A stretch of 64,000 nt of DNA from Kordiimonadaceae bacterium (lineage in GTDB: Bacteria > Pseudomonadota > Alphaproteobacteria > Sphingomonadales > Emcibacteraceae). Position 1 is the stretch's first letter, and the number at the start of each line of letters is the position of its first letter. The notes beneath the pieces were generated by a model that saw only the letters and a program-made list of their open reading frames with translations, ran no database searches and was not told where the DNA came from. The translations under genes were made by a program, and so were the position numbers. Shown piece after piece: positions 7,501 through 34,224 of this stretch. The stretch is from positions 120,929 through 184,928 of the forward strand of contig JAYODU010000003.1 of assembly GCA_038106445.1 (NCBI GenBank). Reading direction: 5' to 3'.

Positions 7501-8004
7501 CGTGAAAATAAAAAATATCATCGTGGTCGTCTAATCCATAAATTGCTGGAAATATTACCAGACATAAACGCAGAAAACAGAAAGATAGTGGCCGAGAAAT
7601 ATTTATCACAAAGTGCGCATGGTCTTTTGAAAAAAGACATTCAACAGATAAGCAAAGAAGTAATGGCTGTGTTTGAGGATGAAAGATTTGCGGCTTTATT
7701 TTCGGATGCGAGCCGCGCAGAAGTGCCCATTGTTGGGCAGGTTGGTAATTATACGATTAGTGGATTTGTGGATAGACTGGTTATTGAGGGTAATGAAATA
7801 TTAATCGTTGACTATAAAACCAATCGCCCACCACCAGAAACGGCAGATAAAACACCAAAGCTTTATTTGCGGCAGATGGCCGCATACAGAAAAATATTGA
7901 GCGATATTTATCCAGATCACACCATAAGATCAATGTTACTGTGGACGGATAATTGTTCGCTGATGGAAATTCCGGATCATTTACTGGATAAAATAGAATT
8001 TTAA
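4546..8004 (+). CDS. addA: double-strand break repair helicase-nuclease AddA (UvrD/Rep superfamily 1)
   Basis: Walker A GASAGTGKT near the N-terminus, DEAQDT helicase motif II, VHGAKGLQAP and YVAMTRA late helicase motifs, and a C-terminal nuclease motif (GFVDRLVI..ILIVDYKT). ATG 4546 overlaps the addB TGA by 1 nt (TGATG). Confidence 0.9.
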   Translation: MVQQTSEQLLASDPQYSVWVGASAGTGKTFVLTNRVLRLMLAGTRPDKILCLTYTNTAAAEMAIRVNNRLAKWISLDDSILFDELCELLGCAPNQEQISLSKRLFADVLDVPGGLKIQTIHSFCQSLLGRFPIEAHVSPGFDLLDEITINEQLRLSRDELLLNIHMGEDNDLKNALTKISQVIAETTFVQLMKSIIAERDSIDHLFDINNNSVKKVISSLKLLLGLSVEDTRDTILDAACSDKSFNISALKKASQILKTGRKTDVDRGEIIANWINQKKSRKENFENYKKAYLRSTDGDFLKTYMTKDLALANGAALETLIKEAERVKFVTERLKAFELFENTTAILRLGDALLTTYKKRKKIHNVMDYDDLIMKVRNLLKIPGGASWVLYKLDEGIDHILIDEAQDTNPSQWEVIRHLAFEYFAGIGTRDEQILSEHPRTIFAVGDVKQSIYSFQKADPKHFVSNGDVFMKQAQDAGLQNASVPMNLSFRSTSTILNVVDQVFKNEEDRKAISFSLDEIHHDTSRAGEAGLVEIWETIKPVDEEPDDDWSPPVIQTPEIDPRRMVAERIADQIKQWLDNGEKLKSKDCVIKASDILILVQKRKEFVNYMIRALKARNIPVAGLDRMELTDQLAVMDLIAAAKFTLLPEDDLNLAIVLRSPLIGLDEDDLFELAYHREDGEKLWDAMLRRKNEKNSFKHAAEALINLTTIADFQPPYEFFNSILGPMGGRKKIVARLGEQAIDPIDEFLIQALNFEKNNASSMQGFLHWLESGEIKVKRDMDQGGDMVRIMTVHGAKGLQAPIVFLADTCQTSDMRQEQLLWYADEEKREKALIWRQKKENLTGIGLAAYKDREAKIKNESKRLLYVAMTRAEDRLYVTGFEDRGSRTLSDDCWYSMIRTAVLGMDGIKEVAEGEETILRLERGGNIVKRDEVKKHEKIKNIMPLPAYAYLPPDHEPTPTKPLTPSRPDEKETVTSPLYRKQSMERENKKYHRGRLIHKLLEILPDINAENRKIVAEKYLSQSAHGLLKKDIQQISKEVMAVFEDERFAALFSDASRAEVPIVGQVGNYTISGFVDRLVIEGNEILIVDYKTNRPPPETADKTPKLYLRQMAAYRKILSDIYPDHTIRSMLLWTDNCSLMEIPDHLLDKIEF

Positions 8005-8083
8005 TGTATCTGCCTCTTGACGGTGGCCCTTTGGCTTCCTAAGTTCTGTAAGTAATTTAATAATTTTAATAAAGGAACGTCTT

Positions 8084-8401
8084 ATGAGCGTTATTGCTGT
8101 GACCGATGACAAATTTGAAAGTGAAGTATTAAAATCCGACAAGCCGGTGGTCGTGGATTTCTGGGCCGAATGGTGTGGCCCCTGTAAACAATTCGGCCCC
8201 GTATTTGAGGCTGTTTCTGATACTGTAGATGGCGTTACCTTTGCAAAAGTGAATATCGATGAAAACCCGGAAGCACCAACGCGATTTGGCATTAGAAGCA
8301 TTCCAACGATGTTAATGTTCAAAAACGGTGCAGTTGCCGCCATGAAAGTCGGTAATACAACACGCGGTGATTTTGAAAGCTGGATTAGCGAAAACGCATA
8401 A
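8084..8401 (+). CDS. trxA: thioredoxin
   Basis: 105 aa with the WCGPC active site (FWAEWCGPCKQ) and the typical thioredoxin length and layout. Confidence 0.95.
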   Translation: MSVIAVTDDKFESEVLKSDKPVVVDFWAEWCGPCKQFGPVFEAVSDTVDGVTFAKVNIDENPEAPTRFGIRSIPTMLMFKNGAVAAMKVGNTTRGDFESWISENA

Positions 8402-8423
8402 TTTAATGATTAAGCTGTTTCAA

Positions 8424-8452
8424 GGGCGTCTTTTTTAAAGACGCCCTATTTT
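8424..8452. terminator. rho-independent terminator between convergent trxA and aminotransferase AT1
   Basis: GGGCGTCTTT / AAAGACGCCC 10-bp stem with a 3-nt loop, followed by TATTTT on the plus strand. The U-tract on the minus strand is poor. Confidence 0.7.
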
Positions 8453-8456
8453 GTGC

Positions 8457-9581
8457 TTAGCTAAAGAATTCTTTTTCATAAACTTCGGTAAAGAAAACCA
8501 TGTCTTCGGGCCTTGCTGTGCTTATACGCATCCAGTCAAGCAGTGGTGGAAAAGGTCTGCCGATTGCAATGCCATGTTTGCGGATACGGTTATAAACTTC
8601 AACAACATCCATTCCTGTGTGGAAAAATGTAAAGTTAGCGTTTGATTTTATATGCCTCATGCCATGTTTATCGAAAAAATCATACAGAACCTGAAGTGCT
8701 TCAGCATTTTTACGAAGGACAAATTCCTGGTACTCTTTATCTTTATAACTTTCAATCGCACCCCACATGGCGGGACCATTAATGGAACCTGTCATCATGG
8801 TTCTGATTTTGGTAAGCATTTCAGGGGATCCAAATCCAAATCCAATTCTGATCCCGGCAAAAGCATGGATTTTCGATGCTGTTCTGGTAACGATCAAATT
8901 GGGATGATCGGGCACAAGCGGGATCATGGTCTGATAGTTTGGATCCACGACATATTCATAATAGGCTTCATCGACAAAAACATAGCATTTTTGCGACATT
9001 TCCTGAACAAAGGCTTTCAGTTTTTCACCGTGCATTACGGTCGGGATTGGATTGTTGGGGTTGCATAGATAAATAATCCTTACATCATCCGTATAGGCAT
9101 CATACATTGCATCCAGATCGATAGATAAGTCATCTGCAACCGGAACCCAGGTTTTTTCTATGCCGCGCCAATCGCTATATTCCATAAATGTATCATCATA
9201 GGTGGGTTGGGGGGCGAGTATTTTCCCGCCTTCAAGTGCGACCATTAATGCAAGCGTTTTTAAAATTTCACCAGACCCGCCAGCCACCATAACATTTTCA
9301 GTCGGAACCCCTTCCATACTGGCAATAAGTTCAGTTAGCGGACGTTGTCCGCCACCACCACCATATAGATGGCCATATTTATGAGCATTGTGCATGGCGT
9401 TACTGGCTTTTTTATTTACGCCATATGGATTTTCATTTGAACTCATGCGGATTGGATTTTCCGGCGTGGGTACATATCCTTCAATTGTAATGCTTTGTGC
9501 ATGGGCATTTGCGGCAAGGGCTGCGCCACCAATGAGTGCAGTACCGCCAATAAGCCATTCGCGTCTTGTTAAATTGGTCAT
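8457..9581 (-). CDS. Tat-signal HisC-like (class I/II) PLP aminotransferase, array copy AT1
   Basis: N-terminus MTNLTRREWLIGGTALIGGAALAANAHAQ (T-R-R-x-W-L, hydrophobic core, AHA-Q). Aminotransferase landmarks SSNENPYG, NPNNPIPT, DEAYYEYV, and the PLP-Lys context RTASKIHAFAGIRIG. Confidence 0.85.
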   Translation of the reverse strand: MTNLTRREWLIGGTALIGGAALAANAHAQSITIEGYVPTPENPIRMSSNENPYGVNKKASNAMHNAHKYGHLYGGGGGQRPLTELIASMEGVPTENVMVAGGSGEILKTLALMVALEGGKILAPQPTYDDTFMEYSDWRGIEKTWVPVADDLSIDLDAMYDAYTDDVRIIYLCNPNNPIPTVMHGEKLKAFVQEMSQKCYVFVDEAYYEYVVDPNYQTMIPLVPDHPNLIVTRTASKIHAFAGIRIGFGFGSPEMLTKIRTMMTGSINGPAMWGAIESYKDKEYQEFVLRKNAEALQVLYDFFDKHGMRHIKSNANFTFFHTGMDVVEVYNRIRKHGIAIGRPFPPLLDWMRISTARPEDMVFFTEVYEKEFFS

Positions 9582-9644
9582 ATTCTCTTCCCTCCAGGTT
9601 TTTCCCTAAAGAAGGATAGCAAATTAATTGAGTATGTAACACAA

Positions 9645-9682
9645 AATAAAAAAGGCGTCAGAACAAAGCAGTGCTGACGCCC
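9645..9682 (-). terminator. rho-independent terminator after AT2
   Basis: GGCGTCAG / CTGACGCC stem. Read on the minus strand it is followed by TTTTTTATTTT. Confidence 0.7.
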
Positions 9683-9705
9683 TATTGAATAATTTTAAAT
9701 AAGGA

Positions 9706-10827
9706 TTATGCGAATAATTCCTCATAAACTTTAGCGAAATATTCCATATCTTCCGGCTTACCCATGCTTACACGGCACCATGTCAAGAATGGGGGGAAGG
9801 TACGAGCGACAATTATGCCTTTATCCCTGAATATTTGCCGTACTTCATTGGCATCAATACCGGTTTCAAAGAAGACAAAATTGGAATTGGATTTGACATA
9901 ATTTACATTGTGCTTGTCAAAAAGCGCGTAGGTAATGGCAAGTGCTTCCTGATTTTTACGGCGGCAGAAATCCTGTGTTTCTGTATCTTTATAGCTCGCC
10001 GCTGCACCTGCAATCGCAAGCTGGTTTGTTGAGCCGGTCATGTAATCGCGTAATTTTCTGATCAAGGTTTCCGATGCATATGCAATACCAAGCCGCACAC
10101 CGGCAAAACCGTGGATTTTTGAAGCAGTACGAGCGACCATGATATTTTCGTTACTTGCGGCCAGTGGCACCATCGTTTCATAGTCAGGATTTTGCACATA
10201 CTCATGGTAGGCTTCATCAATAAATACCATGCATTTTTGTGACATTTCGAGACAGAATTCACGAAGCTTGTCTTTATGCATGATTGTGGGAAGCGGATTA
10301 TTCGGGTTAACCAGATATATAATACTTACATCATCCGTATAGGCTGCCTTTAATGCATCTAGGTCAATTGTCATTGTTTCATCAACAGGAACTCGGGTGA
10401 CAGGTACACCAAACCGTTCAGCAGAACGCGTCAGGTCATGATAGGTCGGATCAGCGGTAAGAACACGCCCGCCTTCAAAGGCGGTCATTAATCCCAATGT
10501 TTTAAGAATTTCGCCTGAGCCTGCGGAAAAGGTTATATTCTCCGGCGATACACCCTCCATATCAGCCAGAACTTGTGTCAGTTCCATACGGCGGCCCGCA
10601 CCATAATGATGCGCTGTATCAAACATATCAATAATGGCGTTTCGTGCCGCCCTTGAAACGCCGTAAGGGTTTTCGTTAGTGCCTAGCCTTAGTGGGTTTT
10701 CAGGTGTTGGTACAAAACCGGGCACGGCCATGTTTTGTGCATTTGCACGACTGTTGCCAAGAAGTGCAGCAAGTGCGAGAGTTGAGCCACCCTTAAGCCA
10801 ATCCCGCCTGGAAAGTTCGTTTGTCAT
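9706..10827 (-). CDS. Tat-signal HisC-like PLP aminotransferase, array copy AT2
   Basis: MTNELSRRDWLKGGSTLALAALLGNSRANAQ signal. Landmarks GTNENPYG, NPNNPLPT, DEAYHEYV, RTASKIHGFAGVRLG. Confidence 0.85.
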   Translation of the reverse strand: MTNELSRRDWLKGGSTLALAALLGNSRANAQNMAVPGFVPTPENPLRLGTNENPYGVSRAARNAIIDMFDTAHHYGAGRRMELTQVLADMEGVSPENITFSAGSGEILKTLGLMTAFEGGRVLTADPTYHDLTRSAERFGVPVTRVPVDETMTIDLDALKAAYTDDVSIIYLVNPNNPLPTIMHKDKLREFCLEMSQKCMVFIDEAYHEYVQNPDYETMVPLAASNENIMVARTASKIHGFAGVRLGIAYASETLIRKLRDYMTGSTNQLAIAGAAASYKDTETQDFCRRKNQEALAITYALFDKHNVNYVKSNSNFVFFETGIDANEVRQIFRDKGIIVARTFPPFLTWCRVSMGKPEDMEYFAKVYEELFA

Positions 10828-10918
10828 TTCAGTGATCCCTCATATTATGTGCAATGTTATGAAATAATGTAACTTAGGATATCAGTTTTTTATTAATTGT
10901 CACGCACAAGATTAGGGT

Positions 10919-10956
10919 AACAAAAAGAGCAATTCCCGATACGAAAATTGCTCTTT
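10919..10956 (-). terminator. rho-independent terminator after AT3
   Basis: AAAGAGCAATT / AATTGCTCTTT 11-bp stem with an 11-nt loop. The minus-strand read runs into TTTTTG. Confidence 0.6.
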
Positions 10957-10979
10957 AAAATTCAATATGTTACTTACGT

Positions 10980-12107
10980 TCAGCTTACAAATTCTTTTTC
11001 ATAAACTTCAGCAAAATACACCATATCTTCAGGTTTTCCCATGCTTACACGGCACCATGTGGTATAAGGCTGGAATTCACGTCCGACTAAAATACCGTGG
11101 TTTCTAAAACGTTCTCTGACCTCATTTACGTCAATGCCGGTTTCAAAGAATATGAAATTGGTGTTGGATTTTATGTATCTTACATTGTGTTTATCAAAAA
11201 GATTATAAACGATTTCCTTTGATTCACGATTTTTACGACGGACAAAATTCTGCGTTTCAGCATCAAGATAACTTGCCATTGCCGCCCTTAATGCAAGGCT
11301 GTTGCTTGAGCCGGTGATATATTCATTTATTTTATCAATCCACATCTCGGACCCGTATCCAATACCCAAACGCAGTCCTGCAAAACCATGGATTTTTGAA
11401 GCTGTTCTGGCGACAACGATATTTTCATAACTGGCGGTTAAAGGAACCATTGTTGCATAATCCGGGTTTTCAACAAATTCATGGTAAGCTTCATCAATAA
11501 ACACCAAACATTTCTGAGACATCTCAATACAAAATTCCCGCAGTTTGTTTTTTTCCATGATGGTCGGCAGCGGGTTGTTGGGATTTACAAGATAGATAAT
11601 GCTTACATCATCTGTATAGGCTTCTCTCATTGCATCAAGGTCTATTGTCATGCTGTTATCAACGGGTATATGTTTTATCGGCACATTACGGTTGATAGCG
11701 TACCGTGTAAGACCATGATAGGTCGGATCAGCTGTCAAAACTGAACCACCTTCTACCGCAGTTATCAGCCCTAATGTTTTTAAAATTTCGCCTGATCCTC
11801 CGGAGAAAGTGATATTTTTAGGATCAACCCCTTCAATTTCCGCAAGGATTTTGGCCAGCCCTGCTTCGCCTTCTCCTCTGCTGCTATAAAGATGGCTTTT
11901 ATCAAGCGTTTCCATGACGGCATTTTTTGCCAATAGTGATATCCCGTAAGGGTTTTCATTGGAACTAAGTCTTAGTGGATTTTCCGGGGTCGGCACAAAG
12001 CCAGGCACCGCCATATCCTGCGCATTGGCGCGACTGCCCATTAACATGGCAACTGCCAAAGCGGTGCCACCTTTCATCCAGTCGCGTCTGGTAATATCAG
12101 ATTTCAT
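10980..12107 (-). CDS. Tat-signal HisC-like PLP aminotransferase, array copy AT3
   Basis: MKSDITRRDWMKGGTALAVAMLMGSRANAQ signal. Landmarks SSNENPYG, NPNNPLPT, DEAYHEFV, RTASKIHGFAGLRLG. Closest paralog of AT2 (by eye about two thirds identical). Confidence 0.85.
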   Translation of the reverse strand: MKSDITRRDWMKGGTALAVAMLMGSRANAQDMAVPGFVPTPENPLRLSSNENPYGISLLAKNAVMETLDKSHLYSSRGEGEAGLAKILAEIEGVDPKNITFSGGSGEILKTLGLITAVEGGSVLTADPTYHGLTRYAINRNVPIKHIPVDNSMTIDLDAMREAYTDDVSIIYLVNPNNPLPTIMEKNKLREFCIEMSQKCLVFIDEAYHEFVENPDYATMVPLTASYENIVVARTASKIHGFAGLRLGIGYGSEMWIDKINEYITGSSNSLALRAAMASYLDAETQNFVRRKNRESKEIVYNLFDKHNVRYIKSNTNFIFFETGIDVNEVRERFRNHGILVGREFQPYTTWCRVSMGKPEDMVYFAEVYEKEFVS

Positions 12108-12190
12108 TTTTTGTCCCCTAATTTTTTATGACAATGTTTTGGAAGGTTATAGTGAACGGATTATAGCTGATTTGGCAGATATAAGCAAAT

Positions 12191-12219
12191 ATGACGCTTC
12201 AAAATTATAGAAGCGTCAT
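12191..12219 (-). terminator. hairpin after AT4 (possible terminator)
   Basis: ATGACGCTTC / GAAGCGTCAT 10-bp perfect stem with a 9-nt loop. The downstream U-tract on the minus strand is weak (ATTTGCTT). Confidence 0.4.
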
Positions 12220-12239
12220 TTAAATTGAATATTAGTTTT

Positions 12240-13364
12240 TTAACTTACAAATTCTTTTTCGTAAACTTCGGCGAAATAAGCCATATCTTCTGGCTTTGCC
12301 ATACTTACACGTGCCCAGTCAAGATAGGGCGGGAACGGGCGTCCGACATCAATCCCGTGTTTTAGAAAACGTTCCTTTACGTCGGCAAAATCAATTCCCG
12401 TATGGAAAAAAGTGAAGTTGGAATTTGATTTAAAGTGTCTGACATTATGTTTTTCAAACACTTCATAAGTAACAGCCAATGCTTCCTGATTTTTACGCTT
12501 TATAAAATCCATGAATTCATTGTCCTGGTATGCGGCTACCGCGCCGTATATGGCGGGTGTAGCTACCGTCCCGGTAATACGCCGGTTCATTTTTGCCAGT
12601 GTTGCCGGTGTGGAAAAAGCAAACCCGACACGAACACCGGCAAAGCCATGAATTTTTGATGCGGTGCGTGAAACAATAATATTATCATTTGTTGCAGCAA
12701 GTGAGACCATGGATTGGTAATTGGGATCTGTGACAAACTCGTGATAGGCTTCATCAACAAAAACAATGCATTTTTGTGACATTTCAAGGCAGAATTCCCG
12801 CAGTTTGTTTTTTTCAAGTATCGTCGGGATCGGGTTGTTTGGATTACAAAGATATATGAGTTTCACATCATCCGTATAAGCGGCACTTATGGCATCCAGA
12901 TTGGTTGTCATACTTTCCTGATCCACGTCAACCCATTTCAGTTCCGTGCCCACCCATTCACAATAACGCACAAGGTCATGATAGGTCGGGTTCGCAGCCA
13001 TAACCGTTCCTCCCTCAAGTGCAACGATAAGGGCAGCAACTTTTAAAACCTCTTTTGATCCGCCGGCGATAAAAATATTTTCCGGTGCAACACCATTCTG
13101 ATCCGCCATAATTTGCATAAGTTCGCGCCTTCCACCCCCACTATAAAGGTGCGATGTTTTAAAACCTTCAATCATCGCATTCTGCGCTGACCTTGGGACA
13201 CCGTATGGGTTTTCATTTGAACTCATACGGATCGGGTTTTCTCTTGTTGGTGTATAACCGTTTACAGTTACGCTTTGTGCATGTGCGGTCGTTGCGTATG
13301 CCAGTCCGGCCGCAGCAAGCGATGATGTCCCCTTAAGCCAGTCTCTTCTTGTTAATTCTCTCAT
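12240..13364 (-). CDS. Tat-signal HisC-like PLP aminotransferase, array copy AT4
   Basis: MRELTRRDWLKGTSSLAAAGLAYATTAHAQ signal. Landmarks SSNENPYG, NPNNPIPT, DEAYHEFV, RTASKIHGFAGVRVG. Confidence 0.85.
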   Translation of the reverse strand: MRELTRRDWLKGTSSLAAAGLAYATTAHAQSVTVNGYTPTRENPIRMSSNENPYGVPRSAQNAMIEGFKTSHLYSGGGRRELMQIMADQNGVAPENIFIAGGSKEVLKVAALIVALEGGTVMAANPTYHDLVRYCEWVGTELKWVDVDQESMTTNLDAISAAYTDDVKLIYLCNPNNPIPTILEKNKLREFCLEMSQKCIVFVDEAYHEFVTDPNYQSMVSLAATNDNIIVSRTASKIHGFAGVRVGFAFSTPATLAKMNRRITGTVATPAIYGAVAAYQDNEFMDFIKRKNQEALAVTYEVFEKHNVRHFKSNSNFTFFHTGIDFADVKERFLKHGIDVGRPFPPYLDWARVSMAKPEDMAYFAEVYEKEFVS

Positions 13365-13392
13365 TTATTGTCCCTTTTTATTTTTTCTTAAA

Positions 13393-14520
13393 TTATCCAA
13401 AATTTCGTTTATAAACTTTTACCATATATTCTGTTTCTTCCGGTTTGGCTGTGCTGATCCTTATCCAGTTGGGGAATGGATCATATTGCCGCCCGATCAG
13501 CACACCACTTTCAAGTAATTTGTCCCTGACTTCGTTGGCGTCTTTTCCGGCATCCGCATATACAAAGTTTGCATGGGCATTTACATAACGCATACCAAGC
13601 TCATCGAACATTTTATAAAGGATGGCGAGCGATTCATAATTTTTATCGACGACAAATTTCTGATATTCAGCATCCTGATAGCTGGTGATTGCGCCCATCA
13701 ATGATGGATATGTAGCGGTTCCTGATCTGAACATCATGAGCTTTGCCATTGTATCCGGGTGCGCAAAGGCAAAGCCGATACGAACATTGGCAAATGCATG
13801 TATTTTTGATGCTGTCCTCAGGATCACAATATTCGGATTATCTTTTACAAGATGAGCCATTGTTGAGAAACTGTCATCACGCACATATTCATAATATGCT
13901 TCATCAATCACAATCATCGCTTTTTTTGAAAATTCAAGACAAAATTGTTCCAGGGCATTTTTTTCAATAATACTTGGAATTGGATTGTTCGGGTTACAGA
14001 AATAAATGCATGTGGTCTTGTCAGTAACTGCTTTTCTCATAGCTTCAATATCAATCGACATATCATCCGCAACGGGAACTTCAATAACATTGCCGCCGAA
14101 GTTTTGTGCTGCACGCATAATACCGCCAAATGTAGGGTAAGGGGCGATCATATCACCACCCGTGATGCCGCATAAAGCACCGGTTGCAACAAGATATTCA
14201 CCGGATCCAGCACCGACAGCAATACATTCTTCCGGCAGATTTTCCATTTTCGCAATGACGCGGATGAGTTGCCGGCCCGTCGTGAAGTTATAAGTGTGGG
14301 CACGCTTGTATGCTTCGGTGATTACCCTCATTGCTTTGGGGTTAATACCGTAAGGATTTTCATTATTGGTCATCCGAATTGGATTTTCAGGTGTTACCGG
14401 ATCACCGAAAGCTGTGAAATCCGACATTTCCTGTGCTTTTGCCCTAGCTGATAACATCAGTCCCCCGGCAACAGCCCCAGTTCCGATTAGCCAGTCACGT
14501 CTTGTAAGTTCATTTTTCAT
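13393..14520 (-). CDS. Tat-signal HisC-like PLP aminotransferase, array copy AT5
   Basis: MKNELTRRDWLIGTGAVAGGLMLSARAKAQ signal. Landmarks NNENPYG, NPNNPIPS, DEAYYEYV, RTASKIHAFANVRIG. Only 28 bp separate it from AT4. Confidence 0.85.
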   Translation of the reverse strand: MKNELTRRDWLIGTGAVAGGLMLSARAKAQEMSDFTAFGDPVTPENPIRMTNNENPYGINPKAMRVITEAYKRAHTYNFTTGRQLIRVIAKMENLPEECIAVGAGSGEYLVATGALCGITGGDMIAPYPTFGGIMRAAQNFGGNVIEVPVADDMSIDIEAMRKAVTDKTTCIYFCNPNNPIPSIIEKNALEQFCLEFSKKAMIVIDEAYYEYVRDDSFSTMAHLVKDNPNIVILRTASKIHAFANVRIGFAFAHPDTMAKLMMFRSGTATYPSLMGAITSYQDAEYQKFVVDKNYESLAILYKMFDELGMRYVNAHANFVYADAGKDANEVRDKLLESGVLIGRQYDPFPNWIRISTAKPEETEYMVKVYKRNFG

Positions 14521-14537
14521 TTTAATCTTCCCTTTGT

Positions 14538-15677
14538 TCAGGCGAATTTTTCCCTGTATTTTTCGGCAAAATATGCCATTTCTTCCGGTTTCGTCAGGCT
14601 TAGTCGCACCCAGTTTGCATAAGGTTTAAACGGACGGCCGGTTAAAATATGATGTTTTTTCATAATTTCCTCAACTTCGGTTGATGGTCGGCCTGCGTTA
14701 AAAAATATGAAGTTTGCATTACTTTTTACATATTCAAGTTCCAAATCATCCAGCATTGCGGAAATAATTTGCTGGCATTCCTTGTTTTTTTGTCTCAGGA
14801 ATGTCTGATATTCAAGATCCTGATAGCTTTCAATGGCGCCGCGCACTGCGGGCAGGTTAAGCGTATTCGTAAACAATCCGAAACTTTTTTGTATAAAGTC
14901 AGGATGTGCGTAACACACGCCAATTCTCATCCCTGCAAATGCATGAATTTTTGAAGCTGTGCGTGTAACAACAATGTTCTTGTTTTCTTTTACAAGGCTG
15001 ATCATGCTTTCGTAATCAGGATTATCAACATATTCATAGTAAGCTTCATCAATTAATATTGTTGCTTTTTCAGACATTTCATTACAGAAGTCTTTAAGTG
15101 CGTTTTTCTCAATGATGCTTGGGATTGGGTTATTGGGATTGCAAAGATAAATAAGCTTTGTGTTATCGGTCATGGCTGCTCGCATCGCATCAAGGTTGAT
15201 ATGCATATCGTCGCCAACCGGCACTTCGATAAGCTTGGAACCCAGAGTTCTGCTGAATCTTGCTATGTCACCGTAAGTCGGTATCGGAAGAAGAATGTCG
15301 CCACCCTGAACGGCATTAAACACTGCTGCTTTTTCAAGAAACTCCGTCGATCCTGCACCCATCCCAACATAATCTTCTGAGATGTCTTCTAGCTTTGCCA
15401 TTAATGCCCTGAACTTGAATATATCTTCGAAGGCGTATTTATGCGAGTTGTCAGCTGCGGCCGCGATGGCTTTCCTAGCTTTTAATGACTGTCCATAAAC
15501 ATTTTCATTTAGGTGTGCGCGGATGGGATTTTCTGCCGTTGGGTTTATATTCGGTTCCATAAAGCTTTGCGCCGAAGCCTTTACTCCAGAAAGAAGTAAT
15601 CCTGTGGCTGCCGCTGTTGTTGTACCGGCAAGCCATTCACGACGAGTCATTTTTTGTGTCATTTTATTCACTTTCAT
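14538..15677 (-). CDS. Tat-signal HisC-like PLP aminotransferase, array copy AT6
   Basis: MKVNKMTQKMTRREWLAGTTTAAATGLLLSGVKASAQ signal; an alternative start is the ATG at 15662 (MTQKMTRREWL). Landmarks LNENVYG, NPNNPIPS, DEAYYEYV, RTASKIHAFAGMRIG. Only 17 bp separate it from AT5. Confidence 0.85.
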   Translation of the reverse strand: MKVNKMTQKMTRREWLAGTTTAAATGLLLSGVKASAQSFMEPNINPTAENPIRAHLNENVYGQSLKARKAIAAAADNSHKYAFEDIFKFRALMAKLEDISEDYVGMGAGSTEFLEKAAVFNAVQGGDILLPIPTYGDIARFSRTLGSKLIEVPVGDDMHINLDAMRAAMTDNTKLIYLCNPNNPIPSIIEKNALKDFCNEMSEKATILIDEAYYEYVDNPDYESMISLVKENKNIVVTRTASKIHAFAGMRIGVCYAHPDFIQKSFGLFTNTLNLPAVRGAIESYQDLEYQTFLRQKNKECQQIISAMLDDLELEYVKSNANFIFFNAGRPSTEVEEIMKKHHILTGRPFKPYANWVRLSLTKPEEMAYFAEKYREKFA

Positions 15678-15765
15678 ACGAAAAATATTTTGCGATAAAA
15701 TTATAATTGAAATATTGTAACATATATAATCACAATATAATCATGAAGTCCAATCAACAATGCAT

Positions 15766-15798
15766 AGAAAAAGGGCGCCAATCAACAGATTGACACCC
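15766..15798 (-). terminator. strand-specific rho-independent terminator after AT7
   Basis: On the minus-strand RNA, GGGUGUCAAUC pairs with GAUUGGCGCCC (two G-U wobbles) and is followed by UUUUUC. On the plus strand the same positions are C-A mismatches, so the hairpin is only good in the gene's own orientation. Confidence 0.6.
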
Positions 15799-15820
15799 TC
15801 AAAAGTAACTTTGGGGAAGC

Positions 15821-16939
15821 TTATCCAAAAACTTCGCGATATTTGTCGGCTACATATTGCATTTCTTCCGGTTTTACCGTGCTCATTCTGACCCAGTCCG
15901 TATATGGCTGAAATGTGCGTCCGCTCATGATTCCATGTTTTCTAAGTTCTTCTGCTACTTCACGCGCAGGTCGCCCTGCATGGAAAAAGGCAAAATTGCT
16001 GTTTGATTTTACATATCGCAAATTAAGGTCAGAAAACATTTTCTCTAATATATCCATGCTTTCACGGTTTTTTTGTTTCACGAAATTCATGAACTCAGTG
16101 TCCTGATAACTTTCCACTGCACCGGCAACCGCAACATTGCTAAGTGAAAGGCTGAACGGACTAGTTATTTTTTTCATTGTATCCGGATGGGCAAATGCAA
16201 AACCAATCCGTACACCTGCAAAACCGTGAATTTTTGATGCGGTACGGCAAATGATAATATTCTGGTGTTCGGTGACAAGATCCTTCATCGAGGCATAGTC
16301 AGGATTATCAACATATTCATAATATGCTTCATCGATTAATATGAGTGCCTTTTTGGACATTTCAATACAAAAGTCACGAAGTGCATTTTTTTCGATGATT
16401 GATGGGATAGGGTTGTTGGGGTTGCAAAGATATATCAGTTTGAAATCATCTGTCATGGCGGTGCGCATGGCTTCAAGATTAATATGCAAATCTTCGCCGA
16501 CAGGAACTGATACAATTTCCACGCCCAACATTTGTGCCGTGCCGATAACGCTATTATATGTAGGGGATGGTGCGAGTAACGAGCCCTGTGCTATGGCGCA
16601 TGCAAAGGCTGCGCGTTCAAGAAAAGGGGTAGACCCGGTGCCAACAGCAATATGATCGGCGGGTAGATTTTCCATTTTTGAAATCACATTTTTCAGTGCC
16701 ATTTGAGTGCCGAATTCATAAAGGTGTGCTGTTTCAGCAGCTTCAAGCATAACTTTTTTTGCTTTCAGGGAGTGCCCATAAACATTTTCATTAAACCCTG
16801 CGCGGATCGGATTATCTATTGTCGGGTTCAGATTAGGTTGTGGCACTGTCTGTGCATTAGCCATGCTTTGTGCAATCATCGTGCCGGCAACTGCAGCGCC
16901 GCCAACGAGCCATTCACGACGTGTTATTTCAGTAGACAT
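15821..16939 (-). CDS. Tat-signal HisC-like PLP aminotransferase, array copy AT7
   Basis: MSTEITRREWLVGGAAVAGTMIAQSMANAQ signal. Landmarks FNENVYG, NPNNPIPS, DEAYYEYV, RTASKIHGFAGVRIG. GGAGG Shine-Dalgarno upstream. Confidence 0.85.
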   Translation of the reverse strand: MSTEITRREWLVGGAAVAGTMIAQSMANAQTVPQPNLNPTIDNPIRAGFNENVYGHSLKAKKVMLEAAETAHLYEFGTQMALKNVISKMENLPADHIAVGTGSTPFLERAAFACAIAQGSLLAPSPTYNSVIGTAQMLGVEIVSVPVGEDLHINLEAMRTAMTDDFKLIYLCNPNNPIPSIIEKNALRDFCIEMSKKALILIDEAYYEYVDNPDYASMKDLVTEHQNIIICRTASKIHGFAGVRIGFAFAHPDTMKKITSPFSLSLSNVAVAGAVESYQDTEFMNFVKQKNRESMDILEKMFSDLNLRYVKSNSNFAFFHAGRPAREVAEELRKHGIMSGRTFQPYTDWVRMSTVKPEEMQYVADKYREVFG

Positions 16940-17097
16940 TTTTCCTCCTTACAGGGTTTAATCTTGGGTCATTTGTGTGTTACGTTACGGAGTTTAAAAC
17001 ATGCAAGGAAAAATACAAATTAATTATATTTTTTACTTTATAATAATTCTAAAATGTATTATAAGTAATTAAATTAAATTATTAAAGGATGTAAATT

Positions 17098-18327: not shown

Positions 18328-18405
18328 AATGATTCCTCTTTTTGCAGCTATTTTAATTTGATCATATTGACAAATTGTTAAAGCTTCAAAATATGAAGAA
18401 TGCTA

Positions 18406-19524
18406 CTATTTATTATAAGTTACCCGGTAAACACGTCCTGCTTCGTCATCGGCAATCAGCAAACTACCGTCTTTAAGCTCAAGAACATCACTTGGCCGAC
18501 CCCAGGATTCGTTATTTTGAAGAAAGCCGGTGATAAAAGGTTCGTAACTTGTGGCTTTGCCATTTTCAAGGGTAACAAGTGTCAGCATATGCCCGGTGTG
18601 GCCCGCTTCTACCGTCCTGTTCCAGGAACCGTGTTCAGCAATGATCACGCTGTTTTTAAATTTTTCAGGAAACATATCCCCCTTATAAAATGCCATACCT
18701 ATTGCCCCGGCGTGTGGTGCAAGATTTTGGGCCGGGGCAACATAATCATCAGGGTTTTTACCTCTTCCATATTCCGGGTCAGGTGTATCGCCCTGATGAA
18801 TATATGGATAACCAAAATGCATTCCCGGGCCCGTGGCACGGTTAAGTTCATCGGCGGGCATTTCATCACCCATAGCGTCCCGCCCGTTATCGGTAAACCA
18901 AAGATCTCCAGTAATGGGATCCCAATCAAAGCCAACCGTATTGCGAATACCGGAAGCATAAAGTTTGAAGCCGGCAGCGGGATTGTTTACATCCATCGTA
19001 TGAATTGAAGCATAAATCGGTGCCGGTTCACAAATATTGCACGGTGCACCAATGGGAATATACAGAAGGCCATCAGGGCCAAATTCAATAAATTTCCATC
19101 CGTGATGGGTGTCCGTCGGAAGATCAGCGGTTACGATCTCGGGGTTTGGGGAGTCTCTGAATGTATTATCAATGTCGGAAATTTTATAAATTCTGTTAAT
19201 CGCACCGATATAAAGGTCACCATTATGATAGGTAAGGCCGCTTGGTGTATTAAGACCGCCCGTAATGGCAACAACATCGTCGGCTTTGCCGTCCTGATTG
19301 TCATCCGTAATTGCAAATATGCGGCCACCAGCGCGGTTGCGCGTCCCTACATAAACCGTGCCATTGTCACTAAGCGACATTTGCCGTGCATTTGGTACCC
19401 TGGCATAAACTTCAATAGAAAAGCCATCCGGTAATACCAGCTTATCAAGTTCCTGACTTTGAACAGCTGTACCTGTCATTGCAATGATTGGTAAAATTAA
19501 TGCTGCGAGCATTTTGTTTTTCAT
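18406..19524 (-). CDS. PQQ-dependent sugar (sorbosone/aldose) dehydrogenase family protein, secreted
   Basis: Sec signal. Beta-propeller GSDH-family motifs recognised by eye (THHGWKFIEFGPDGLLY, NTVGFDWDP.TGDLWFTDNGRD, GFPY, GRPSDV...DGSLLIADD). Confidence 0.7.
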   Translation of the reverse strand: MKNKMLAALILPIIAMTGTAVQSQELDKLVLPDGFSIEVYARVPNARQMSLSDNGTVYVGTRNRAGGRIFAITDDNQDGKADDVVAITGGLNTPSGLTYHNGDLYIGAINRIYKISDIDNTFRDSPNPEIVTADLPTDTHHGWKFIEFGPDGLLYIPIGAPCNICEPAPIYASIHTMDVNNPAAGFKLYASGIRNTVGFDWDPITGDLWFTDNGRDAMGDEMPADELNRATGPGMHFGYPYIHQGDTPDPEYGRGKNPDDYVAPAQNLAPHAGAIGMAFYKGDMFPEKFKNSVIIAEHGSWNRTVEAGHTGHMLTLVTLENGKATSYEPFITGFLQNNESWGRPSDVLELKDGSLLIADDEAGRVYRVTYNK

Positions 19525-30491: not shown

Positions 30492-32231
30492 ATGACAAAA
30501 TTCTATAAGCTTATGTTGATCACAGTTCATGTGATCATATTTACAATTATGCCTGCGCGGGCGCAGGATGACTATACACCGCCAGACTACAGCTCACGTG
30601 ACGGGTTTGTGCCGATTGTCGGCAAAAATGGCATGGTCAGTGTCAGGGAAAGTATAGCCGCCGAAGTTGGCGCAGAAATACTTGAACAGGGCGGTAATGC
30701 CGTTGATTCAGCAGCGGCAATCGGTTTTGCGCTTGCGGTGACATATCCGTCTGCCGGTAATATCGGTGGCGGTGGCTTCATGGTCGTTCATATTGCCGAA
30801 ACAAATGAAACCATTACGATTGATTACCGTGAAATGTCAGCGGGCAGTGCACGTCATGACCTTTATGTGGTTGATGACAAGGTTGATAACCGTCTTGCCA
30901 AATACAGCCGTCAATCATCCGGCGTGCCCGGAACCGTCATGGGTATGGCCCTTGCCATTGAAAAATATGGCACAATGACCCTGCAGCAGGTCATGGCACC
31001 TGCCTATAAGCTCGCGAGCAAAGGTTTCCCGGTTTATACCAACCTTGAAGTGACCCTTGCCCGCAGTAAAGAGCGTCTGGGCGCTGATCCGGCGGCATCA
31101 AAGGTATTCTATAAAGCGGATGGCAGCAATTACCGGGCCGGTGAAATACTGGTGCAGGAAGACCTTGCATGGTCCTTGAAGCAGATCATGGATAATGGTG
31201 TTGATGCATTTTATAAAGGCGAAGTTGCAAAACGGATAACAGACGATATGGCGGCAAATGATGGTCTGCTGACTATGGAAGATTTCGCCGCCTATAAGGT
31301 TTATGAGCGGGCGCCCGTTTGGGGAACTTATAAAGGCTATAAAATAGCGACAATGCCGCCGCCGTCATCCGGAGGAATGCATATGATTCAGATGATGAAT
31401 ATGCTCGAAAATGATGATCTTAAATCAATGGGGCATAACAGCGCGGCAACACTTCATCTTTATATCGAAAGTATGCGTCAGGCTTATGCGGACAGGAGCC
31501 TTTATGCGGGTGATCCGGCATTTTTTGATATTCCGGTTGATAAAATCATAGATAAGGATTACGCAGCCGAAATTCGTGCCCGTATTCCGATGGACCGTGC
31601 CCGTGACAGTTCCGAAGTGGCACCGACCAAAAACCTTGCCTATGAAAGTCCGGAAACAACCCATTATTCGGTCATGGATAAATGGGGTAACGCTGTCAGC
31701 AATACCTATACGCTGAATTTCGGTTTTGGTAATGGTATCATGGCGGCTAACACAGGTATCCTGCTTAATAACGAACTTGATGACTTTGATCATGAGCCAT
31801 ACAAGCCCGATGCAAACGGGAATATCAGTGGCAAAGCCAATGCCCAGGAACCACATAAACGCCCGCGTTCTTCCATGACACCGACTATTCTGTTCAAGGA
31901 TGACAAGCCATTTTTGATCACCGGCTCGCCGGGCGGTGGTACCATTATCAATACGGTTTTTCAGACGGTCATGAATGTGGTTGAATTTGATATGAATGTG
32001 GCGGCAGCATCAAGCAAGCCACGGATTAATCACCAATGGATGCCCGATATGACAACCATTGAAAATGGTGTCAGCCAGGATACGCTGAATATACTGGAAA
32101 GCATGGGTCATAAATTCAATGCCAGCGGGCGCACACTTGGCAGCACGAACAGTATTATCTGGCGTGATGGCTGGTTTTATGGTGCCCATGATCCGCGTAA
32201 TATGAATGCGGCGACCATCGGGATTAACTGA
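30492..32231 (+). CDS. ggt: gamma-glutamyltransferase, secreted, paralog GGT1
   Basis: Sec signal ending PARAQ. GNIGGGGFMV. Autoprocessing/catalytic Thr context SPETTHYSVMDKWGNAVSNTYTLN. TGSPGG near the C-terminus. Confidence 0.9.
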   Translation: MTKFYKLMLITVHVIIFTIMPARAQDDYTPPDYSSRDGFVPIVGKNGMVSVRESIAAEVGAEILEQGGNAVDSAAAIGFALAVTYPSAGNIGGGGFMVVHIAETNETITIDYREMSAGSARHDLYVVDDKVDNRLAKYSRQSSGVPGTVMGMALAIEKYGTMTLQQVMAPAYKLASKGFPVYTNLEVTLARSKERLGADPAASKVFYKADGSNYRAGEILVQEDLAWSLKQIMDNGVDAFYKGEVAKRITDDMAANDGLLTMEDFAAYKVYERAPVWGTYKGYKIATMPPPSSGGMHMIQMMNMLENDDLKSMGHNSAATLHLYIESMRQAYADRSLYAGDPAFFDIPVDKIIDKDYAAEIRARIPMDRARDSSEVAPTKNLAYESPETTHYSVMDKWGNAVSNTYTLNFGFGNGIMAANTGILLNNELDDFDHEPYKPDANGNISGKANAQEPHKRPRSSMTPTILFKDDKPFLITGSPGGGTIINTVFQTVMNVVEFDMNVAAASSKPRINHQWMPDMTTIENGVSQDTLNILESMGHKFNASGRTLGSTNSIIWRDGWFYGAHDPRNMNAATIGIN

Positions 32232-32280: not shown

Positions 32281-32329
32281 TTGCCAATATTTGATTGGTA
32301 TGGCTAACTTCACAGTGGAGGGTTTAACA

Positions 32330-34078
32330 ATGGGAAAATATTTTCTTGCCATCATCATTTTTGTTTTTTCTGCGCAGTTCATAAATGCACAGGATAAAAA
32401 ACTGCCGGATTTCAATGCAATAGACGGGTTTGTGCCGGTCATTGGGGAAAAGGGCATGGTTTCAAGCCGTCATTATCTGGCTACCGAAGTGGGGGCGAAT
32501 ATCCTGAAACAGGGTGGTAATGCGGTGGACGCAGCGGCGGCTATTGCATTTGCGCTTGCGGTCGTGCATCCGGAAGCAGGGAATATCGGCGGTGGTGGTT
32601 TTATGGTCATCCATATTGCGGACAAGCATAAAACCACGACTATTGATTACCGGGAATATGCCGGGGAAAATGCGACACATGACCTTTATGTGGTGGACGG
32701 TAGAATTGACCCGTTTCTGTCATTTCAAAGCCGCAAATCGGTTGGTGTGCCGGGGACGGTTGCGGGTATGGCAATGGCCCTTGAAAAATATGGTACCATG
32801 TCCCTTGCGGATGTGATCAAACCGGCTTACGCACTGGCAAGTGAAGGATTTATCGTTGGTCGCCATCTTGAACGCACGCTCGAAACACACCGGGAAAAAT
32901 TAATAGCTGCGCCGGAAACACGGGAAATTTTCTTTAAGGCGGACGGTGGGTCATACCGGTTTGGCGATGTGCTTGTTCAAAGCGATCTCGCCGGATCGTT
33001 AAAAGCCATTATGGAACAGGGCCCCGATGCATTTTATAAAGGGGAAATTGCCGAAAAAATGATCGCGGATCAACGCAAATATGATGGCATCCTGACCATG
33101 GATGATTTTGCATCCTACAAATCCATAGAGCGGGAACCGGTAACCGGAAGCTATAAGGGTTATGAAATTGCCGCCATGCCGCCACCATCATCCGGCGGGG
33201 TTCATGTGGTTCAGATGCTGAATATGCTCGCAAATGATGATATTCGTGCCAAGGGTCATAACAGCGCAGAAACACTTCATTTATATATCGAAGCCATGCG
33301 GCAGGCTTATGCAGACAGAAGCCTTTATACCGGGGATCCTGCCTTTTTTGATGTGCCGGTTGCGAAATTAACCGACGCGGAATATGCTCGTGAAACACGG
33401 GCGAAAATACCATTGGACCATGCCCGCAGATCGGCTGATCTGGCGCCGACAGAAGGATTAAACAGCAGGGAAAGCACGCAAACCACCCATTTTTCAGTAA
33501 TGGATGCGTGGGGCAACGCGGTCAGCAATACATATACGGTCAATTATGGTTTTTATGAAGGCATGCTGGCGGGCGGAACGGGCATTGTGCTGAATAATGA
33601 ACTGGATGATTTTGATCACCTGCCATATGAGCCCGATGTGAACGGTAATATCAGCGGGGAGGCAAATGCCCAGGAACCGCGAAAAAGACCCCGTTCATCG
33701 ATGACCCCAACAATTGTGTTAAAAGACGGGGTGCCGTTTCTGTTAACCGGAAGCCCGGGAAGCTCAACGATCATCAATACCGTATTTCAAACCATTATGA
33801 ATGTGATTGAGTTTGAAATGAATATTGCGGCGGCGTCAAGCAAGCCACGGATACACCATCAATGGATGCCGGATATCGTCGAAGTCGAAAGCAGCCTGAA
33901 TATCGATACTATCAATATCCTTAAACATATGGGACATAATATTGTTTACCGCGCGGACAGTAACACATACGGGTTTATGACACTTGGTGAAACAGCAAGC
34001 ATTGTTTATAAGGATGGTTATTATTACGGGGCGCATGATCCGCGTAATATGGATGCGGGTACAATAGGGCTTAATTAA
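32330..34078 (+). CDS. ggt: gamma-glutamyltransferase, secreted, paralog GGT2
   Basis: The start was chosen at ATG 32330 (MGKYFLAIIIFVFSAQFINAQ), 8 nt after GGAGG. GNIGGGGFMV. Catalytic Thr context STQTTHFSVMDAWGNAVSNTYTVN. Confidence 0.9.
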   Translation: MGKYFLAIIIFVFSAQFINAQDKKLPDFNAIDGFVPVIGEKGMVSSRHYLATEVGANILKQGGNAVDAAAAIAFALAVVHPEAGNIGGGGFMVIHIADKHKTTTIDYREYAGENATHDLYVVDGRIDPFLSFQSRKSVGVPGTVAGMAMALEKYGTMSLADVIKPAYALASEGFIVGRHLERTLETHREKLIAAPETREIFFKADGGSYRFGDVLVQSDLAGSLKAIMEQGPDAFYKGEIAEKMIADQRKYDGILTMDDFASYKSIEREPVTGSYKGYEIAAMPPPSSGGVHVVQMLNMLANDDIRAKGHNSAETLHLYIEAMRQAYADRSLYTGDPAFFDVPVAKLTDAEYARETRAKIPLDHARRSADLAPTEGLNSRESTQTTHFSVMDAWGNAVSNTYTVNYGFYEGMLAGGTGIVLNNELDDFDHLPYEPDVNGNISGEANAQEPRKRPRSSMTPTIVLKDGVPFLLTGSPGSSTIINTVFQTIMNVIEFEMNIAAASSKPRIHHQWMPDIVEVESSLNIDTINILKHMGHNIVYRADSNTYGFMTLGETASIVYKDGYYYGAHDPRNMDAGTIGLN

Positions 34079-34224
34079 AATTTATATCATATATTTTATG
34101 GCTAAAGCTATTATTTTTCATATTTTTTATAGTAATAATGAAAGATAATAATAAATATTGTTGACTAATAGATATTTATAAAGAAAAATATTTTTATGTA
34201 ATTGTAATGCTCAGAGTGTATATC

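Follow-up and report, generated by a model that had tools for sequence, protein, structure and literature searches.

Periplasmic transamination as so far characterised rests on a single enzyme, PtaA of fluorescent pseudomonads, whose Pseudomonas aeruginosa orthologue is presumably PA2531. The twin-arginine translocation (Tat) signal of the aminotransferase PA2531 has been confirmed experimentally with a reporter (PMC6085387). PtaA leaves the cytoplasm through Tat with pyridoxal 5'-phosphate (PLP) bound and is described as a normal transaminase, while its amino acceptor and the recycling of pyridoxamine 5'-phosphate (PMP) to PLP outside the cytoplasm are unsolved (PMC6206403). PtaA homologues occur in species that do not make pyoverdine, and a 2018 review suggested other periplasmic biosynthetic pathways for them (PMC6206403). 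A Tat-exported, periplasmic HisC-like transaminase, with homologues in non-pyoverdine species, is therefore already known. Here we describe a locus with seven HisC-like genes in tandem, each with a predicted twin-arginine signal, which lies in a 64-kb stretch of DNA from a Kordiimonadaceae bacterium (contig JAYODU010000003.1; the whole stretch is called the window below).

The reading that we favour, with reasonable rather than high confidence, is that the locus encodes a battery of Tat-exported, PLP-loaded periplasmic transaminases whose substrates have diverged. What is new is a conserved array of four to eight genes with its own orthogroups and regulatory architecture, set in a housekeeping and not a siderophore context. 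Also new are the evidence for a large unnamed clade of HisC-like proteins with a twin-arginine (RR) signal and the recurrent pairing of that clade with exported Rid proteins. Since RR-signal HisC-like proteins are not rare, the novelty lies in the expansion and not in export. An earlier sequence-only reading of the same DNA had called the precedents for exported transaminases few and single-copy. The RR-signal proteins form a large clade, and outside these families they are single-copy or paired. Otherwise every part of that reading that could be checked held. It knew of no multi-gene battery of exported transaminases, and we found no description of such arrays in the literature searched.

Fold and predicted export signals of the seven proteins

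The program-made list of open reading frames (ORFs) contains seven co-oriented minus-strand aminotransferase ORFs of 372-379 amino acids (aa), at exactly the coordinates given by the sequence-only reading (Table 1). We numbered them copies 1-7 in transcription order, from high to low coordinates. They align end to end, as had been claimed, with 44-57% protein identity to the first copy and a mean column identity of 62%. The motifs NEN(P/V)YG, NPNNP(I/L)P(T/S), DEAY(Y/H)E(Y/F)V and RTASKIH(A/G)FA occur in every copy. A G-rich Shine-Dalgarno box stands 6-10 nucleotides (nt) upstream of the ATG in six of the seven; copy 2 is without a clear box and has several candidate Met starts. Because these boxes precede six of the seven ATGs, the signal peptides belong to real reading frames. 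The array is identical in a JGI metagenome contig and an independent Logan assembly. Among the compared loci and assemblies, labelled L001, L003 and so on (L001 being the locus of a dispersed copy in Pseudemcibacter aquimaris), an independent assembly is L003. Diverged versions were present in five other metagenome-assembled genomes (MAGs) and one cultured genome, and this recurrence places the array far beyond chance.

All seven proteins matched PF00155 over its full length, with 122-156 bits against a gathering score of 19.7 (E 4e-35 to 3e-45). Their best NCBIfam matches were PRK09105, hisC and PtaA, and every copy missed the curated cut-offs: 196-230 bits against 444 for NF006580 (the PRK09105 subfamily), 188-217 against 276.55 for TIGR01141 (hisC), 167-205 against the equivalog cut-off of 500 for NF051461 (PtaA) and 124-140 against 290.55 for TIGR01140 (CobD). 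These cut-offs rule out membership in HisC proper, PtaA, PRK09105 and CobD. The placement as HisC-like PLP enzymes proposed from the sequence is supported by PF00155 and the catalytic residues. Eight RR-signal relatives from other phyla likewise missed the hisC, PtaA and PRK09105 cut-offs (218-275 bits for PRK09105), and the RR-signal clade as a whole is without a family name.

In an alignment to E. coli HisC, the equivalents of Y55 (from the partner subunit), N157, D184, Y187, T211, S213, K214, R222 and R335 were invariant in all seven. The Schiff-base lysine (K214) and the substrate arginine (R335) are thus both kept, and the Lys and Asp picked out by the sequence-only reading proved to be correctly aligned. 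A second invariant Arg, in a GR motif, lies two columns from HisC R322. The AlphaFold (AF2) model of copy 1 had a mean per-residue confidence (pLDDT) of 89.6 and a predicted template-modelling (TM) score of 0.85. Its best structural match was 3LY1 (TM 0.86/0.92, root-mean-square deviation 1.7 A), followed by HisC structures; 3LY1 was also the best solved structure by sequence (178 bits). Judged by profiles, alignment and model, the seven copies belong to the HisC subfamily of class I/II (fold-type I) enzymes, resemble PtaA and PRK09105 and fall in no named family; they are almost certainly functional PLP enzymes.

All seven N-termini begin with (S/T)RR(D/E)W(L/M), continue as an uncharged stretch and reach A-x-A followed by Q. 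The motif (S/T)RR(D/E/Q)W(L/I/M) was found in 115 of 116 full-length close homologues, the lone exception having KR, and R8 and Q30 (the Q after A-x-A) were invariant over 58 sequences. RR plus at least 12 uncharged residues occurred in 118 of the 133 full-length 50%-identity cluster representatives closest to the array profile; most of the others had RR, KR or RK variants. We compared the array signals with those of 14 proteins of the window that carry ordinary Sec or lipoprotein signals, none of which contains RR. The array signals are longer (29-37 vs 17-26 aa) and less hydrophobic, with a peak 10-residue Kyte-Doolittle mean in the h-region of 1.4-2.0 vs 1.8-3.6 (Mann-Whitney p = 0.0007). 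Their h-regions are rich in Gly, Ala, Ser and Thr, and the c-region holds K or R in four of the seven. In the AF2 model of copy 1, residues 1-29 formed a detached helix with pLDDT below 50. The PtaA profile aligned from its position 1-4 in six of the seven copies and NF006580 from position 2-3. Because the alignment starts at profile position 1-3 for most copies, both profiles include the signal.

The sequence-only reading had called these N-termini canonical Tat signals with a signal peptidase I site. The conserved RR, the A-x-A site, the length and the low hydrophobicity bear this out; the Tat profile TIGR01409 (cut-off 16.7 bits) recognised only copies 4 (17.3 bits), 5 (20.2 bits) and 6 (18.8 bits). 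On balance, the features support Tat rather than Sec signals, and the proteins very likely reach the periplasm through Tat. HisC-type enzymes are obligate dimers in which the active site takes a Tyr from the partner subunit. This Tyr is conserved here, which would account mechanistically for the export of an already folded protein.

Descent, divergence and predicted transcription of the copies

We surveyed copy number by scanning one genome per GTDB species, followed by an ORF and hidden Markov model pass. Close homologues came from Emcibacteraceae and Kordiimonadaceae MAGs and from the cultured P. aquimaris (complete genome GCA_020748165.1). GcrA, AddAB and the overall gene content of the window suit an alphaproteobacterium. 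Tandem RR-signal copies numbered eight in L005, seven in each of L006 and L008, at least five in L004 and at least three in L007 (both incomplete contigs), and four, plus one dispersed, in P. aquimaris. The P. aquimaris array consists of orthologues of copies 1-4 (71-76% identity). In all of these relatives the site is constant, with an addB-addA-trxA block on one side and an outer-membrane protein (OMP)/GSDH/HAD/miaA/ilv block on the other.

In a neighbour-joining tree, the paralogues clustered by position and not by genome. Bootstrap values were 96-100 for the orthogroups (100 each for G1 and G2), and the expansion taken together was monophyletic with a value of 98. Gene birth and death were also evident: L006 and L008 hold a group that is absent from the window, and L005 holds an additional copy-2-like gene. 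Orthologue pairs had nonsynonymous divergence (dN) of 0.05-0.22 and a proportion of synonymous differences (pS) of 0.70-0.81, with synonymous sites saturated. The ratio dN/dS (omega) was below 0.1 where computable, which is an upper bound because dS was saturated against all relatives used (the closer L004 was not among them). The paralogues are 52-68% identical in DNA and share no exact run longer than 23 nt, so gene conversion is absent. Recent amplification and concerted evolution were ruled out by the orthogroup bootstraps together with these short runs. Because of the orthogroups, the saturated synonymous sites, the low omega and the low DNA identity between paralogues, the seven genes are, on these comparisons, old and each kept individually under strong purifying selection.

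The paralogues also differ near the substrate pocket. Positions that are conserved within orthogroups and specific to groups include the equivalents of HisC N35, D85, Y113, Q77, T226, A306 and I336. The N35 equivalent stands two residues before NEN, and that of D85 adjoins the PLP phosphate and the substrate. The N-terminal arm of HisC is replaced and shortened in the array proteins, and fused to the signal. The replacing segment reads G(Y/F)(V/T)PT in copies 4-7, GDPVT in copy 3 and N(I/L)NPT in copies 1-2. In HisC, Y20 of this arm contacts the substrate in the E. coli structures; the position equivalences are alignment-based. Substrates have probably diverged among the paralogues.

Transcription of the array is predicted to involve at least five units. 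Copies 2-4 form a tight operon with spacers of 17 nt (copies 2-3) and 28 nt (copies 3-4), each with a Shine-Dalgarno box. Hairpins with T-runs stand after copies 1, 5, 6 and 7, and a weaker one after copy 4 (Table 1). The layout 1, 2-3-(x)-4, 5, 6, 7, where only the second unit has several genes, recurs in L005, L006, L008 and P. aquimaris. The hairpin and T-run after copy 1 keep their position in L005, L006, L008 and L084 with a different sequence, and the same holds for the terminators of the array in general, whose place is conserved across relatives and whose sequence is not. A 14-nt sequence, GTTACAWTATTTCA, occurs exactly twice in the window, both times directly 3' of a -10-like box. A pattern relaxed at one position (GTTACAWTATTKCA; GTTACAWTATT(T/G)CA) recurred at both of these positions in L005 and L006 and once in L008, with no occurrence elsewhere in the 85 loci. 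The element is probably an operator for a shared regulator.

Because the pocket-lining residues differ and the genes form at least five separately terminated units, we read the array as a set of enzymes for different amino compounds and conditions, in an organism well supplied with other periplasmic enzymes that act on such compounds. Each protein would be made in the cytoplasm, bind PLP at the conserved Lys and fold into an obligate homodimer. We infer that this folded, cofactor-bearing dimer is exported by Tat through its twin-arginine signal, after which signal peptidase I would cut between A-x-A and Q. In the periplasm, ping-pong transamination would convert compounds with an alpha-amino and an alpha-carboxyl group to 2-oxo acids, and a periplasmic 2-oxo acid would take up the amino group, regenerating PLP from PMP. 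Different paralogues would serve different amino compounds under different conditions. Transamination is likely to be the chemistry, ahead of other PLP reactions. Whether the role lies in acquiring or handling organic nitrogen rather than in tailoring one metabolite is an even call.

Relatives, gene neighbours and alternative roles

Beyond Emcibacteraceae, single-copy RR-signal homologues were found in Pseudohongiella, Woeseiaceae, Pseudomonadales, Marinomonas, Rhodothermales, Gemmatimonadota, Acidobacteriota, Aminicenantes, Bacteroidota and Enterobacterales. Some Acidobacteriota have tandem pairs; L050, L052 and L056, from the Gemmatimonadota/Acidobacteriota set, carry such pairs, so small arrays exist outside alphaproteobacteria. 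All-vs-all clustering of ORFs within 6 kb of 56 RR-signal loci revealed no universal functional neighbour, only the lineage-specific partners RidA, an NHL-repeat protein, Zn_peptidase_2 and FAA hydrolase. An exported RidA/YjgF-family gene lies at most 600 bp from the single-copy homologue in at least four lineages. These loci are from Pseudohongiella and other gammaproteobacterial MAGs (L011, L015, L017, L018), Pseudomonadales (L025), an unclassified MAG (L021) and Bryobacteraceae (L074), and in L074 the RidA-family gene overlaps the aminotransferase gene by 3 nt. No RidA-family gene occurred at cytoplasmic HisC loci, and none within or next to the Emcibacteraceae arrays. We found no description of an exported Rid protein beside an exported PLP enzyme in the literature searched.

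Other neighbours of these relatives were recorded as well. In Gemmatimonadota and Acidobacteriota, the RR-signal aminotransferase has a close neighbour, an NHL-repeat beta-propeller protein that carries a signal peptide, at a median distance of about 70 bp (e.g. L040 3872-4978). In L013, L016, L019 and L020 (Woeseiaceae, MED-G80), the aminotransferase stands tail to tail with Zn_peptidase_2 (PF04298; checked against Pfam in L016 only). In L019 and L020, a 384-388-aa ORF resembling Cys/Met-metabolism PLP enzymes lies 1-3 kb away, its identity read from the N-terminus. At the same distance is a 415-421-aa RR-signal protein resembling sulfite dehydrogenase, followed by a small signal-bearing ORF, possibly its cytochrome c partner (both by N-terminus reading). 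The closest outgroup, L021, has the gene order GSDH-like, RidA, aminotransferase, which could reflect chance or a remnant of an older linkage.

Several observations weigh against a battery of periplasmic transaminases. All seven proteins fall below the PtaA, PRK09105 and hisC cut-offs, so function is not transferable by orthology. TIGR01409 gave no match for copies 1, 2, 3 and 7, which lack a Lys after the Leu, and Pfam PF10518 scored the signals at 15-17 bits, under its cut-off of 22.7 in all. The W at RR+2 departs from the SRRxFLK consensus, where F stands, and no tatABC genes lie within the window. The differences in the substrate pocket were read from alignments rather than structures. We know of no periplasmic amino acceptor. 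The adjacency of RidA could point to elimination or deamination rather than plain transamination, and the HisC fold is also home to a decarboxylase (CobD) and a cyclodehydratase (GntC).

The last two points belong to an alternative that we consider unlikely, yet the best of those weighed. According to it, the exported PLP enzymes would carry out beta- or gamma-elimination, decarboxylation or net deamination, and the enamine or imine formed would break down by hydrolysis, either spontaneous or catalysed by Rid, to a 2-oxo acid and ammonium. The exported RidA genes near single-copy homologues and their absence from cytoplasmic HisC loci would fit this, as would a weak Alliinase_C match in copy 1 (33 bits), the presence of CobD and GntC in the HisC fold and the fact that net deamination would need no periplasmic amino acceptor. 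However, the Emcibacteraceae arrays themselves have no Rid gene in or beside them. All HisC transamination residues are kept, including both substrate arginines or close equivalents. The top profiles are those of transaminases, with CobD far under its cut-off, and PtaA, the one characterised relative, is described as a normal transaminase (PMC6206403). Rid proteins are also known simply to protect transaminases from 2-aminoacrylate.

Gene context bears on a second and improbable alternative, in which the array would tailor one periplasmic secondary metabolite, such as a siderophore, with the copies acting on variants or successive intermediates. PtaA, the only characterised relative, is a tailoring enzyme, and its homologues in non-pyoverdine species have been assigned by suggestion to other periplasmic pathways (PMC6206403). 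In the window, however, we found no nonribosomal peptide synthetase, polyketide synthase, siderophore-export or TonB-receptor gene and no biosynthetic cluster. The flanks are housekeeping genes, addAB-trxA on one side and a peroxiredoxin/OMP/ilv-miaA block on the other, with the same synteny in all relatives. PtaA scores stay at 167-205 bits against 500, and five separate predicted transcription units argue against a single pathway.

A third alternative, that the N-terminal extensions are not working signals and that these paralogues of HisC or of aromatic aminotransferases stay in the cytoplasm, or tethered to the membrane, and serve ordinary amino-acid metabolism, is very improbable. It could draw on the four signals that fail TIGR01409, on the database annotation as histidinol-phosphate aminotransferase and on hisC scores only moderately below the cut-off. 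Against it, RR and A-x-A followed by Q are essentially invariant despite saturated synonymous sites, and the signals are of Tat type in their length, their hydrophobicity and the charge of the c-region. A shorter segment stands in place of the N-terminal arm of cytoplasmic HisC, and residues 1-29 of the AF2 model are detached from the fold with low confidence. The signal of a homologue also drives Tat export in a reporter assay (PMC6085387). Simple gene-dosage amplification, with redundant copies and no diversification, would suit tandem, co-oriented genes of equal length with identical catalytic motifs, but is hardly credible given 44-57% protein and 52-68% DNA identity without conversion tracts, positional orthologues of every copy in genera with saturated synonymous sites, group-specific pocket-proximal residues, and separate predicted promoters and terminators.

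Returning to a battery of periplasmic transaminases, its neighbours fit an interconversion of amino and oxo acids in the periplasm, without identifying substrates. In P. aquimaris, the dispersed copy-1-type aminotransferase begins 2 bases downstream of a Sec-signal gene of the FAA-hydrolase family. This family acts on 2-oxo and beta-diketo acids and is unusual outside the cytoplasm. The dispersed copy is followed by a DctP-type frame (the solute-binding component of TRAP transporters), which is seemingly split into two ORFs, with the DctP match on the first only and the frame not called as a gene. The window itself encodes a lipoprotein amidase, an S10 carboxypeptidase, two beta-lactamase-family proteins, an Na:alanine symporter and three paralogous gamma-glutamyltranspeptidases with Sec-type signals (PF01019, E 1e-162 to 1e-170), the last two of which flank a Sel1-repeat protein. 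This trio, at a distance of about 13 kb from the array, is a second expansion of periplasmic amino-compound enzymes. The known PtaA substrate is a gamma-glutamyl amide, so a functional link of the trio to the array is conceivable.

More tentatively, the array may be the core of a periplasmic system for harvesting or exchanging amino groups, though we regard this extension as rather doubtful. Transaminases with different donor specificities would strip amino groups from many dissolved or peptide-derived compounds for which import is impossible or unnecessary. One or two oxo acids acting as shuttles, for example pyruvate or 2-oxoglutarate, would collect these groups. The alanine or glutamate so formed could be imported by a few transporters; the Na:alanine symporter and the three gamma-glutamyltranspeptidases are encoded in the window. 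Both subunits contribute to the active site, so paralogues paired as heterodimers could broaden the substrate range. If such a system exists, periplasmic transamination would be a general, overlooked route to organic nitrogen in marine heterotrophs, and the single-copy versions in Pseudohongiella, Woeseiaceae, Gemmatimonadota, Acidobacteriota and Bacteroidota would belong to the same route.

Some further features of the window were noted. At a distance of 1.5 kb from the array there is a GSDH/DUF7133 gene (resembling soluble sugar dehydrogenases of the pyrroloquinoline quinone type, with a Sec signal), which L006, L008 and P. aquimaris have in synteny. The peroxiredoxin and thioredoxin genes in the flanks were considered as a clue to oxidative stress and set aside as housekeeping synteny, as they lie on the opposite strand and the peroxiredoxin gene is not adjacent in Pseudemcibacter. 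A complete locus for high-affinity uptake of phosphate encodes porin O/P, PstS, PstC, PstA, PstB and PhoU; the PstC and PstA frames, both of 456 aa, are unusually long and begin with DUF3708 and DUF3333 domains. An Rfam scan of the window returned only tRNA-Pro. Five ORFs of 100-200 aa run antisense to or overlap the aminotransferase, GSDH and trxA genes, have low-complexity, Cys/His-rich translations without family support and are most likely spurious.

Table 1. Positions of the array genes, their predicted signals and control elements, and other features. Positions refer to the window unless a locus label is given.
Feature	Position	Strand	Details
Copy 1 (orthogroup G1)	15821..16939	-	372 aa; first transcribed; own predicted transcription unit
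Copy 2 (G2)	14538..15677	-	379 aa; opens tight three-gene predicted operon
Copy 3 (G3)	13393..14520	-	375 aa; middle of operon 2-3-4
Copy 4 (G4)	12240..13364	-	374 aa; closes three-gene operon
Copy 5 (G5)	10980..12107	-	375 aa; lineage-specific duplicate of G6 clade
Copy 6 (G6)	9706..10827	-	373 aa
Copy 7 (G7)	8457..9581	-	374 aa; last transcribed
Predicted Tat signal, copy 1	16853..16939 (aa 1-29)	-	MSTEITRREWLVGGAAVAGTMIAQSMANA, then Q
Predicted signal, copy 2			RR at aa 12-13; cleavage after ASA36, before Q
Predicted signal, copy 3			MKNELTRRDWLIGTGAVAGGLMLSARAKA, then Q; basic residues in c-region
Predicted signal, copy 7			MTNLTRREWLIGGTALIGGAALAANAHA, then Q
Terminator-like hairpin after copy 1	15766..15800	-	13-bp stem and T-run
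Hairpin after copy 4	12185..12221	-	end of operon 2-3-4; weaker T-run
Terminator-like hairpin after copy 5	10919..10956	-	with TTTTTGTT
Terminator-like hairpin after copy 6	9643..9683	-	with TTTTTTATTTT
Bidirectional hairpin	8423..8447	.	between end of copy 7 and convergent trxA
14-nt candidate operator, copy 2-3-4 operon	15708..15721	-	GTTACAATATTTCA; upstream of operon, directly 3' of -10-like box
14-nt candidate operator, copy 6	10860..10873	-	GTTACATTATTTCA (GTTAC-N8-ATAAC); upstream of copy 6
Promoter-like sequence, copy 6	10876..10903	-	GTGACA-N16-TATCCT with TG extension; conserved across MAGs
Promoter-like sequence, copy 7	9613..9640	-	GTTACA-N16-TATCCT; GTGACA-N16-TATCCT in related MAGs
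14-nt element in L005	3852-3865, 8702-8715
14-nt element in L006	3985-3998, 8715-8728
14-nt element in L008	8716-8729
RidA-family gene, L011	11138-11734	-	RR-containing N-terminus
RidA-family gene, L015	11040-11642	+	RR-containing N-terminus
RidA-family gene, L018	11160-11813	-	RR-containing N-terminus
RidA-family gene, L021	9247-9711	+	lipoprotein-like N-terminus
RidA-family gene, L025	3511-3957	-	lipoprotein-like N-terminus
RidA-family gene, L074	2978-4195	+	Sec-like N-terminus
RidA-family gene, L017	11164-12021	-	start ambiguous
GSDH-like homologue, L021	7525-9123	+
FAA-hydrolase-family gene, P. aquimaris L001	8931-9998	+	Sec signal
Dispersed copy-1-type aminotransferase, P. aquimaris L001	10001-11119	+
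DctP-type frame, P. aquimaris L001	11150-12229	+	seemingly two ORFs
Gamma-glutamyltranspeptidases	30492-32231, 32291-34078, 34986-36734	+
Sel1-repeat protein	34207-34917
GSDH/DUF7133 gene	18406-19524	-
Phosphate uptake locus	47975-54769	-
Probably spurious ORFs	8652-9068, 16341-16655, 16703-17023, 18400-19008	+
Probably spurious ORF	7981-8343	-

Comparison with known systems

The array changes the setting in which PtaA is seen. One lineage keeps four to eight diverged copies, predicted to be separately regulated, under strong selection, and the RR-signal HisC-like clade spans many phyla, where its members are routinely mis-annotated as histidinol-phosphate aminotransferase. What was a curiosity of siderophore tailoring probably becomes a general periplasmic activity. 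For marine microbiology, the locus suggests that dissolved organic nitrogen passes through a processing step not recognised before. The cultured P. aquimaris, with its four-gene array orthologous to copies 1-4, offers a tractable system in which to study substrates and acceptors.

Among described enzymes, CobD, the L-threonine-O-3-phosphate decarboxylase, has a HisC-like fold and appeared in both the profile and the structure matches, but it acts in the cytoplasm, in a cobalamin context. PvdN is a periplasmic PLP enzyme exported by Tat with its cofactor (PMC6206403; PMC6085387), as is predicted for the array proteins. It differs from them in its PLP subfamily and in its chemistry, from glutamate to succinamide, and no PvdN model was among the top matches. 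HisC (TIGR01141; E. coli 1FG3/1GEX) shares its fold and its catalytic and PLP-binding residues with the array proteins. It is cytoplasmic and free of a signal, and its arm reads PYxPGKP..., where that of the array is shorter (G(Y/F)xPT or NxNPT). HisC genes often lie in a his operon, and the array does not.

The PRK09105 subfamily, the first or second best profile match of the copies, shares with 3LY1 the motifs SKIHA(F/M)AG and GRxFPP...W.R(I/V)S, which the array also has. 3LY1 is a structural-genomics entry from Pectobacterium atrosepticum, named 'putative histidinol-phosphate aminotransferase', with about 30% identity to the array, and its NPNNPTG corresponds to NPNNP(I/L)P(T/S) in the array. 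By annotation the subfamily is without a function, and a relative from a different Enterobacterales species, L039, has an RR signal. PtaA and PRK09105 are the named families nearest to the array. PtaA is, as the array proteins are, a HisC-like fold-type I PLP enzyme with a twin-arginine signal. It is exported folded to the periplasm (PMC6206403; PMC6085387) and acts on a free alpha-amino/alpha-carboxyl group (PMC6206403). It is single-copy and tied to pyoverdine, whose Glu side chain it converts, whereas the array has seven paralogues (four to eight in relatives) and the window no pyoverdine or other siderophore genes. The PtaA signal reads RRSFV and those of the array RRxWL, and the host of the array is a marine alphaproteobacterium.

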